Below the pieces are notes generated by a model that ran no database searches, was not told the origin of the DNA, and worked only from the letters and a program-made list of their open reading frames with translations. Shown piece by piece: positions 12,081-13,402 of a stretch of DNA of 32,000 bases. The stretch spans positions 1 through 32,000 of the forward strand of contig JAMPXD010000006.1 of the NCBI GenBank assembly GCA_023701365.1. The letters run 5' to 3'. A program made the translations under genes and the position numbers. Position 1 is the stretch's first letter. Each line of letters opens with the position of its first letter. This DNA comes from Geobacteraceae bacterium (lineage in GTDB: Bacteria > Desulfobacterota > Desulfuromonadia > Geobacterales > Geobacteraceae).

Positions 12081-12371
12081 TCAGCAGCAGCCGCTGCTGC
12101 TGCCGCGGCGGAGCTTCAGGCTGTCCAGCCATTCGTTGATCATCCCGGAGGCGCACCCCACCCCCGATTCGACCGCGATCGCCTTCACCGGGCAGTTGAG
12201 GGCGCAGGCGCCACACTCCATGCAGGCGTCGAGATCGGCAATGCGAGACTTTTTCCCCTCGATGACGAAGACCTGATGGGGGCAGACCCGGGCACACATG
12301 CCGCAGCCGATGCAGGTCTCCCGGTCGAGCTGCAAAGTCGCCACGTTTTTCAAGTATGCAAAGCCTCTCAT
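12081..12371 (-). CDS. hgcB: Mercury-methylation ferredoxin HgcB (2x[4Fe-4S])
   Basis: 96 aa. Cluster motifs C20IGCGMCARVCP and C50MECGACALNCP; the C(M/I)ECGA form is typical of HgcB. Additional Cys73 and a C-terminal vicinal Cys95-Cys96 (...SSSGCC). AAGGAG SD overlaps the hgcA stop, with an 11-nt gap. Confidence 0.9.
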   Translation of the reverse strand: MRGFAYLKNVATLQLDRETCIGCGMCARVCPHQVFVIEGKKSRIADLDACMECGACALNCPVKAIAVESGVGCASGMINEWLDSLKLRRGSSSGCC

Positions 12372-12382
12372 GACGTTACTCC

Positions 12383-13402
12383 TTATGCCGAAAAAAACCT
12401 GCCCGCGACCCAGAGTACCGCCCCGACCACGATAGACAGGGCCATGATCGGCAATGACAGCCGCATCTCCTTCTTCACCCCGGAGCGGGAGGTGAAGGGG
12501 GTGCTCCCGGTGAAGTTGAGGGCGAGAAAAGAGGCGACCGCCGGCAGGAGAAGAAAATGCGCCGCAGCGATATAGCCATTCCCCCCCATGCCGCTCGCCC
12601 CGTACCAGAGGAGAGCCCAGACCAGCCCGGCAAAGGCCCCTTTGACCGCAAAGCTCCGGGTAGGGAGCCAGGGGAGGAGGAGCGGCGCGACCAAGGCGCC
12701 GGCCAGCACCGCGCCGAGATAGGCTATGACCGGTCCGACCGCTGCGGAAAGGGAGAAGCCCTCCGCCGCCGTCCCCCCGAGGAAAAGGAGAACAAGCAGG
12801 ATGGGTATCGACCCCTTGAGGGCGACGACCAGTTCGATGGGGGTGAGTATCAGCCGCTCGCCCGGGGTGAAGGTCAGCTCCCGCATCGCCGGCGTGGTGG
12901 TCATGCCGTTATCGAGATATTCCGGGAGGTCGCTGGCCCTGATGGTCGCATAGCGGACCGTGAAGCCGGTCCGCCGGCGCACCTCGTGGGCGGAAACGCC
13001 CGCGGCCCCCAGAATCGGCAGGAGCAGGAGGCGGTGGCTCACCACCTCGGCGAGCCGGGTCGCCTGCACCCGCCGCACCAGCTCGCCGGTGCCGAAGGTC
13101 CCCTTGCCGGCGGCGCACCAGACATTGATCCCGTAGGTCTCCAGGACCAGCAGCCAGACGTCGCGGCCGGAAAGCTCCCGGCGGACCAGGTCGTAGCTCA
13201 TCTTGTAGTTGGCGGTCACCAGCACCGGCGCGTCCGGCGAGGGGGCGCCGATGGCGTACAGCCCCGGCGCCACCAGGTAGGACATCCGGCCGATCCCCCA
13301 GCGCGCCTTCCAGGAGCCGAGCCGGTCGCCGAAGCAGAGTTCCGCGGAGACAACCGGCGCCCTCCCGGCCGGAGTATCCTTCCAGCGGAGGAAGCCCGGC
13401 AC
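12383..13402 (-). CDS. hgcA: Mercury-methylation corrinoid protein HgcA
   Basis: 339 aa. The diagnostic cap-helix motif N-V-W-C-A-A-G-K (aa 93-100, nt 13103-13126 on the minus strand, verified codon by codon) sits within VLVTANYKMSYD...GINVWCAAGKGTFGT. The C-terminal half carries about 5 predicted TM helices. The start is a GTG with a weak SD, so the N-terminus is uncertain. Confidence 0.9.
   Translation of the reverse strand: MPGFLRWKDTPAGRAPVVSAELCFGDRLGSWKARWGIGRMSYLVAPGLYAIGAPSPDAPVLVTANYKMSYDLVRRELSGRDVWLLVLETYGINVWCAAGKGTFGTGELVRRVQATRLAEVVSHRLLLLPILGAAGVSAHEVRRRTGFTVRYATIRASDLPEYLDNGMTTTPAMRELTFTPGERLILTPIELVVALKGSIPILLVLLFLGGTAAEGFSLSAAVGPVIAYLGAVLAGALVAPLLLPWLPTRSFAVKGAFAGLVWALLWYGASGMGGNGYIAAAHFLLLPAVASFLALNFTGSTPFTSRSGVKKEMRLSLPIMALSIVVGAVLWVAGRFFSA

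Follow-up and report, generated by a model that had tools for sequence, protein, structure and literature searches.

An hgcA-hgcB mercury-methylation gene pair from a Geobacteraceae bacterium in which hgcA very probably starts 144 nt upstream of its annotated start and reads through UGA as selenocysteine

The window analyzed here is a 32,000-nt (32-kb) stretch of DNA from a Geobacteraceae bacterium, and its minus strand carries the mercury-methylation gene pair hgcA and hgcB (hgcAB). To our knowledge, hgcAB is the sole known genetic marker of microbial methylmercury production, and for this reason a correct hgcAB call matters for metagenome risk mapping. The locus was compared with 80 related loci (L001–L080), and motif invariance was read from an alignment of 62 homologous sequences. 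By every test applied here, the identification of the locus as hgcA-hgcB is correct. The two genes are separate, with an 11-nt gap and no HgcAB fusion, and the ribosome-binding site of hgcB, AAGGAG, is formed by the TAA stop codon of hgcA together with the spacer GGAGTAACGTC. In 78 of the 80 related loci hgcB directly follows hgcA. The coordinates of all features are collected in Table 1.

As called in GenBank and in the initial annotation, HgcA is a 339-amino-acid (aa) protein beginning at GTG 13402. Against the NCBIfam equivalog model NF040863 it scores 453.8 bits (E 3e-136, aa 16–336 of 339), above the cut-off of 275 bits. HgcA and HgcB both stay below the cut-offs of the two families that had been named initially as possible grounds for refutation. 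HgcA has 180 bits against the fused HgcAB-like model NF043039 (cut-off 285) and 61 bits against NF003195 (PRK04165; cut-off 306), the gamma-subunit model for corrinoid iron-sulfur protein (CFeSP). The latter match covers profile positions 324–446 of 450 only, and the NF003195 search gave no full-length match to the CFeSP large subunit with its N-terminal Fe-S domain and TIM barrel. Pfam recognizes the CdhD domain (PF03599, aa 44–150) only, and the only solved structures related by sequence are CFeSP large (gamma) subunits, matching aa 43–151. The cap-helix motif NVWCAAGK, a form of the HgcA signature N(V/I)WCA(A/G)GK, is found exactly, to the nucleotide, where it was first reported, and residues N93 through G101, including Cys96, are invariant in the 62 sequences. 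Cys96 corresponds to Cys144 in the numbering of the full-length protein proposed below. The AlphaFold2 model of the 339-aa form, with a predicted local distance difference test score (pLDDT) of 86.9, consists of an alpha/beta domain followed by five long C-terminal helices (180–210, 218–241, 251–270, 276–300 and 306–336), in agreement with the approximately five transmembrane (TM) helices initially proposed. The cap region, aa 92–101, is modeled with low confidence, which is expected because the cofactor is absent from the model. In a Foldseek search the first rank is taken by the deposited integrative model of HgcAB from Pseudodesulfovibrio mercurii ND132 (9a0b_A, E 6e-23, 46% identity), followed by CFeSP corrinoid domains (E ~2e-6, ~130 columns).

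HgcB scores 130 bits (E 2e-38) against NF040864, above the cut-off of 99, and Pfam detects Fer4 domains in it; the E values of both proteins are far removed from chance. The two CX2CX2CX3CP motifs are CIGCGMCARVCP at residues 20–31 and CMECGACALNCP at residues 50–61; of the further cysteines, Cys73 lies in GVGC, and Cys95-Cys96 are the last two residues of the protein. The two motifs, Cys73 and the terminal Cys-Cys, like the size of the ferredoxin and its distance from hgcA, had been listed initially and are borne out by the sequence. The cysteines sit at positions that in ND132 bind clusters or are needed for activity, and position 73 is Cys in 78 of 78 related loci with an hgcB match. According to the preprint of Haft (bioRxiv 10.1101/2022.07.06.499078), selenocysteine (Sec) occasionally occupies HgcB residue 73.

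The pair is no novelty in itself. The 339-aa form is 100% identical to NCBI protein P0001, ‘MAG: mercury methylation corrinoid protein HgcA [Geobacteraceae bacterium]’. Among GTDB species representatives (one genome per species) the best HgcA match is 78% identical and comes from another Geobacteraceae metagenome-assembled genome (MAG), and the top 80 such matches belong nearly all to Geobacteraceae/Desulfuromonadales, together with Syntrophales. The locus is a genuine but ordinary hgcAB pair, typical of its family and already deposited and named, and the initial remark that the system had been described before was right.

The 5′ end of hgcA is very probably different from what the annotation gives. 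A TGA codon lies in frame 15 codons upstream of GTG 13402. In most of the related loci a short upstream open reading frame (ORF), in frame with hgcA, ends 42 nt before the aligned ‘start’, always in ...DKPPC. The codon aligned with the stop is TGA in 65 loci, TGC or TGT (Cys) in 14, GGC in one (L071) and TAA or TAG in none, with one locus unscored. In L071 the aligned codon is closely preceded by a CC pair, a hint that the alignment is slightly shifted there. The peptide is conserved on both sides of this codon as DKPPC-[U/C]-GP(K/P)T(P/S)A(V/G)(S/G)G.I(D/S/T)E.VPGF, and TGA-type and Cys-type genes alike keep a fixed spacing of 14 codons between this codon and the ‘GTG start’. The ‘start’ valine itself belongs to the VPGF motif. 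This residue is internal in the continuous Cys-form proteins (387–397 aa, PPCCGP), and the motif opens a confidently modeled beta-hairpin in the models of both the 339-aa form and the Cys-form homolog P0059. Inspection of the sequence before GTG 13402 found no ribosome-binding site comparable to the AAGGAG that precedes ATG 13546. The frame 3′ of the TGA is intact and 78–81% identical to the nearest relatives, and the upstream start position is shared with the two closest of these (MTDR... in the window, MSDK... in L001 and MSDR... in L002).

From these sequence comparisons, hgcA very probably starts 144 nt further upstream and reads through UGA as selenocysteine. The full-length product would read MTDRQFDHISPPPQEVPCGVAPPGGSEPDKPPC-U-GPKTPAVSGKIDEN-VPGFLRW... 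and is very probably a 387-aa Cys-Sec (CU) selenoprotein, with Sec at position 34, encoded at 12383–13546. The 339-aa frame is simply what ORF calling gives behind an in-frame TGA, and the claim of a complete pair within 12081–13402 needs to be amended: coding evidence for hgcA continues to ATG 13546, and this interval is therefore ~144 nt short at the hgcA 5′ end. The N-terminal Cys-Sec extension was missed there as it was in GenBank. A second conserved Cys occurs ~15 residues before Cys-Sec, in the form xCG(T/A), and in the window it is Cys18, with its codon at 13493–13495. A single extra upstream Cys is present in 52 of 64 UGA-type loci, while 13 of the 14 Cys-type loci have an extra Cys-Cys pair; the pair seems to make up for the lost Sec.

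The RNA following the UGA forms a short hairpin, CCCGC-GGUCA-GCGGG. The other TGA loci pair in the same register (nt 15–20 with nt 26–31), with either the window type or CUCCGC(C)-GGN-(G)GCGGAG, and divergent sequences such as UUUUCCC-AGG-GUGGGAA keep the pairing. Among six possible pairs, the TGA loci make 5.85 canonical pairs and the Cys loci 3.64 (Mann-Whitney p 7.6e-13), and registers slid along the sequence give 2.3–4.2. A null model that resamples synonymous codons while keeping each peptide gives a mean of 3.94 and a maximum of 4.26 pairs in 500 resamplings. The hairpin cells are paired in 97.4% of cases, a level reached in 0 of 500 shuffles and compared with 39–70% in slid registers. 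Changes on both sides of a pair (compensatory changes) are seen in 36 hairpin cells, compared with 12 ± 3.4 expected. The pairing exceeds the synonymous null and is absent in the Cys forms, and the hairpin is therefore kept beyond protein constraint, only where UGA needs recoding. The minimum free energy (MFE) of the first 48 nt fails to separate TGA from Cys loci (−14.6 vs −13.0 kcal/mol, p 0.11); the two kinds of loci are told apart by the pair count in the fixed register only.

The hairpin is what a bacterial selenocysteine insertion sequence (SECIS) element should look like, and we describe it as a putative, SECIS-like element. Two classes are found, CCCGC-GGUCA-GCGGG with the peptide GPKTPAVSG and CUCCGCC-GGN-GGCGGAG with GPPTSAGGG, together with rare third variants in L061 and L072; hairpin RNA and peptide appear to co-vary by clade. 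The apical loops are GGUCA or CGGNG. The apical GGUC may resemble the SelB-binding loop of Escherichia coli fdhF, which stands about as far from its own UGA.

The selenoprotein form of HgcA has already been published and is hence not new; it is the GenBank record of this MAG that has yet to absorb an insight of 2022. In the preprint cited above, Haft re-read GSU1440 of Geobacter sulfurreducens as a CU selenoprotein with the extension MSQPGPDVDRPPCUGPKTPAVSGTINENVPGFLRWLDTPAGR, found PCUGP invariant in the 20 sequences examined, noted that additional Cys residues show ‘packing’ in Cys-form proteins, and described the short database HgcA entries as an artefact. Sec machinery was encoded in every examined species with a UGA-type hgcA, and it was also Haft who suggested heavy-metal binding by the CU motif. 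A 2026 review lists HgcA (NF040863) among CU selenoproteins. SECIS candidates were inspected by eye only in the preprint, and none was shown for hgcA. The present analysis adds the TGA-specific hairpin with its covariation and the census of single Cys in UGA-type versus Cys-Cys in Cys-type genes. The covariation test is a small independent confirmation and no discovery.

Several explanations compete for these observations. If the annotation is right, HgcA is the 339-aa protein from GTG 13402, the TGA really terminates translation, and the 33 codons upstream of it encode a separate small peptide or leader, or are non-coding. This agrees with the GenBank/PGAP call (P0001), with the many database homologs of 318–339 aa, with the activity in lysates of ND132 HgcA made from a short start and with the lack of Sec machinery in the window. 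However, at a genuine stop TGA, TAA and TAG would be expected to replace one another, and TAA or TAG occupies 0 of 79 aligned codons, with 14 Cys codons in open frames. The stretch between TGA and GTG keeps both its peptide and its length of 14 codons, the GTG lacks a Shine-Dalgarno sequence and corresponds to a Val that the Cys forms conserve inside the protein, the hairpin is specific to the TGA genes, and the short database entries are the artefact that Haft describes. We regard a 339-aa HgcA as improbable. A truncated or silent copy, in an organism without Sec machinery whose ribosomes would stop at the UGA and produce hardly any HgcA or none, is very unlikely. Our view of Sec genes covers 32 kb only, which leaves room for such a copy, but the downstream frame has kept its identity to the nearest relatives, the hairpin is intact, and the species with UGA-type hgcA in the preprint all encode Sec machinery. 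The pair might also be a non-methylating paralog, belonging either to CFeSP, as an AcsC/CdhE-like subunit, or to the HgcAB-like fusions. Older annotations of many homologs as ‘acetyl-CoA synthase subunit gamma/delta’ and the Pfam result, with the CdhD domain only, point in that direction. The model scores refute it (CFeSP gamma 61 vs 306, HgcAB-like 180 vs 285 and HgcA 454 vs 275 bits); moreover, the genes are separate, and the cap-helix Cys, which is absent from CFeSP, and a five-helix TM domain are both present. A paralog of this kind is exceedingly improbable.

A number of observations also weigh against the reading of UGA as Sec. There is no selA, selB, selC, selD or tRNA-Sec gene within the 32-kb window, and because of this the capacity of the organism for Sec insertion is assumed from its relatives. 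Experimental incorporation of Sec or selenium into any HgcA was not found in the searchable literature, and proteomic studies detect HgcA at low abundance or fail to detect it. HgcA of ND132 from the old shorter start, produced in E. coli with an N-terminal His tag, supports methylation in lysates (PMC11588087); methylation in vitro can therefore proceed without the tail. The hairpin has no Rfam match, neither in the whole window at gathering thresholds nor, beyond chance level, around the site with E up to 10. An extended lower stem (nt 2–9 with nt 50–57), suggested by the fold of 60 nt, was rejected: its 5.8 of 8 pairs are close to the synonymous null (5.69) and to the Cys forms (5.2). Taking both sides together, we assign a probability of about 0.85 to a two-gene hgcAB operon of this Geobacteraceae bacterium in which hgcA starts at ATG 13546, the UGA is decoded as Sec and the product has 387 aa.

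The mechanism can be outlined mostly by analogy with the ND132 enzyme, in which the cap-helix Cys (Cys93) is required (its replacement by Ala or Thr abolishes activity, and His in its place leaves part of it), as are the TM domain and HgcB Cys73, and in which a double mutant of the C-terminal HgcB cysteines loses 95% of the activity (PMC7305189). The Co(I) corrinoid of ND132 HgcAB is methylated by S-adenosylmethionine (SAM), rather than by the methyl-tetrahydrofolate that the CFeSP analogy suggested, and for the second half-reaction, in which methyl passes to Hg(II), a radical- or anion-based route with participation of the cysteine tail of HgcB has been proposed (PMC11588087). By the same analogy, HgcA of the window would be a membrane-anchored corrinoid protein, its soluble domain being homologous to the CFeSP corrinoid-binding domain and holding cobalamin, with Cys96/Cys144 as the proposed lower axial ligand of the corrinoid cobalt. 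Co(I) would be methylated, as by SAM in ND132, and the methyl group would pass on to Hg(II) to give methylmercury. HgcB with its two [4Fe-4S] clusters would return the cobalt to Co(I), and its Cys73 and C-terminal Cys-Cys would handle Hg(II) and CH3Hg+.

To this cycle the full-length reading would add the N-terminal tail, made when UGA 13447–13445 is decoded as Sec, a step in which the hairpin 13 nt downstream would likely assist. The tail of the Cys-form homolog P0059, taken as a proxy for that of the window, has a pLDDT of 41–55 and is predicted to be flexible. Such a tail, with Cys18 and Cys33-Sec34, would probably serve as a soft-ligand arm, catching Hg(II) or a mercury thiolate and bringing it to the methyl-corrinoid, a role that would parallel that of the HgcB Cys-Cys tail. 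A bolder proposal, which we put forward tentatively and lean against more than toward, is that the tail is the physiological Hg(II) acceptor, that the methylmercury output of Geobacteraceae and other UGA-type methylators depends on selenium and on SelB/SECIS, and that Cys lineages compensate with Cys-Cys. If the tail were indeed the acceptor, in vitro work on the short construct would have used an enzyme without its substrate-capture arm.

As a candidate methylator recognized from sequence, the uncultured organism adds one Geobacteraceae member to those already listed, which is not news in itself. The value of the locus lies mainly in the correction of its annotation, in which the first 48 codons with the Cys-Sec motif were cut off. 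Surveys, profile models, structural models and expression constructs built from truncated entries omit a probable metal-binding arm. Such entries also conceal that mercury methylation may be linked to the availability of selenium, a putative link that has already been proposed in the literature.

The gene directly upstream of hgcA encodes a 174-aa protein and stops 5 nt before ATG 13546; because only these 5 nt separate the two, co-transcription with hgcA is possible. The Shine-Dalgarno sequence of the full-length hgcA lies inside the end of this gene. The 174-aa gene stands between an OppC-like permease gene and hgcA, with 55–84% identity, in 11 of the 80 loci, all in a Geobacter-type subgroup. 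In L001 (4955–5863) and L009 (4945–5841) a gene for a DUF815 AAA-type ATPase (PF05673, E 4.5e-104) separates the 174-aa gene from hgcA. No DUF815 gene is present in the window (13403–13551 compared), and hgcA abuts the 174-aa gene. Further upstream are the Opp/Dpp-type ATP-binding cassette (ABC) genes, and the start of the binding-protein gene is overlapped by the gene for a 581-aa tetratricopeptide repeat (TPR) protein (17876–19621). The 174-aa gene and the Opp-type ABC genes were considered as components of the hgcAB system and rejected, being syntenic in only 10–12 of the 80 loci, all of the Geobacter-type subgroup. The carbonic anhydrase gene downstream of hgcB is probably unrelated to hgcAB. 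The order ABC transporter, 174-aa gene, hgcAB and carbonic anhydrase is confined to the Geobacter-type subgroup of the 80 loci. A consensus scan of 11200–14300 for sigma-70 promoters and intrinsic terminators found nothing.

Otherwise the window looks as expected for the chromosome of an organism of this kind, with genes for a sigma-54 activator, an S1-domain protein, a GAF-SpoIIE phosphatase, Lgt, RmuC and a multiheme cytochrome. The stretch 4001–8000 has a low GC content of 0.44–0.48, compared with ~0.60–0.64 in its flanks, and holds two ORFs without Pfam match (4756–5565 and 5661–6155, both on the plus strand) and the gene of an RsgA GTPase (6701–7783, plus strand). It may have been horizontally acquired.

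Table 1. Features at and around hgcAB, in positions of the window
Feature	Position	Strand	Basis
hgcA as called in the initial annotation and GenBank, 339 aa from GTG	12383..13402	-	ORF list
hgcA, proposed full-length coding sequence, 387 codons, probable Sec at codon 34	12383..13546	-	In-frame translation across TGA; start match in L001/L002; match to GSU1440 extension
UGA, putative selenocysteine codon	13445..13447	-	Aligned-codon census, 80 loci
N-terminal tail, 48 codons, with Cys18, Cys33-Sec34 (PCUGP) and linker GPKTPAVSGKIDEN (putative)	13403..13546	-	In-frame translation
Shine-Dalgarno AAGGAG, 11 nt upstream of ATG 13546, inside end of 174-aa gene	13558..13563	-	Sequence
SECIS-like hairpin CCCGC-GGUCA-GCGGG, nt 16–30 from U of UGA	13418..13432	-	Fold of 60 nt from UGA
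Cap-helix motif NVWCAAGK, aa 93–100 (339-aa numbering)	13103..13126	-	Sequence
HgcA transmembrane domain, five helices, aa 180–336 (339-aa numbering)	12395..12865	-	AlphaFold2
hgcA-hgcB spacer, 11 nt, GGAGTAACGTC	12372..12382	-	Sequence
hgcB, 96-aa ferredoxin, two [4Fe-4S] motifs	12081..12371	-	NF040864, Fer4 domains, cysteine positions
Beta-class carbonic anhydrase, signal-peptide-like N-terminus, directly downstream of hgcB	11309–11995	-	Syntenic in 8/80 loci
174-aa ORF directly upstream of hgcA	13552–14076	-	No Pfam/NCBIfam match
Opp/Dpp-type ABC genes, family-5 substrate-binding protein and two permeases	14166–17879	-	No ATPase subunit gene adjacent

Among known systems, the CFeSP large subunits AcsC/CdhE (2h9a, 2ycl, 4c1n and 4djd) have in common with HgcA a corrinoid-binding Rossmann-like domain of ~110–130 residues at 24–28% identity. 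Unlike HgcA of the window, they have an N-terminal [4Fe-4S] domain and a TIM barrel and are without the TM domain and the cap-helix Cys. The Cys-form HgcA proteins (PPCCGP, 387–397 aa; P0059, P0063 and P0109) are 59–62% identical to the full-length window protein with Sec written as Cys. They show the same conserved junction in a continuous ORF and have Cys where the window is read as Sec, while their loci are without the post-codon hairpin and carry the extra upstream Cys-Cys in 13 of 14 cases.

The 46% identity to HgcA of ND132 (DND132_1056/1057; model 9a0b_A) extends over 325 aligned columns. Both proteins have an equivalent cap-helix Cys (Cys93 in ND132 and Cys96 in the window) and five TM helices, and the linker after PCUGP is GPRPDPRAGVFEKPGY in ND132 and GPKTPAVSGKIDENVPGF in the window. 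In HgcB the cysteine numbering of the two nearly coincides, with 20/23/26/30/50/53/56/60/73 followed by the terminal pair. The hgcAB genes of ND132 are presumably often flanked by an ArsR-type regulator; in the window, no regulator adjoins hgcA. HgcA of Geobacter hydrogenophilus (L009) is 66% identical. A literature search on mercury methylation by G. hydrogenophilus returned no papers; this species reportedly methylates mercury, which is not used as evidence here.

One of the closest known counterparts is the GSU1440/GSU1441 pair of G. sulfurreducens PCA, on which methylmercury production depends (Parks et al. 2013, cited after 10.1101/2022.07.06.499078). The window represents a different species of the same order-level lineage, with the same two-gene layout and the same Cys73 and C-terminal Cys-Cys in HgcB. 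By our count, 30 of the 37 positions of the published GSU1440 extension are identical in the window, PCUGP is intact, and the junction PCUGPKTPAVSG...NENVPGFLRW is common to both proteins. Relative to the ‘minimal’ published extension, which has 13 residues before Sec, the window protein as proposed here has 33, and the longer tail brings in the extra Cys18.

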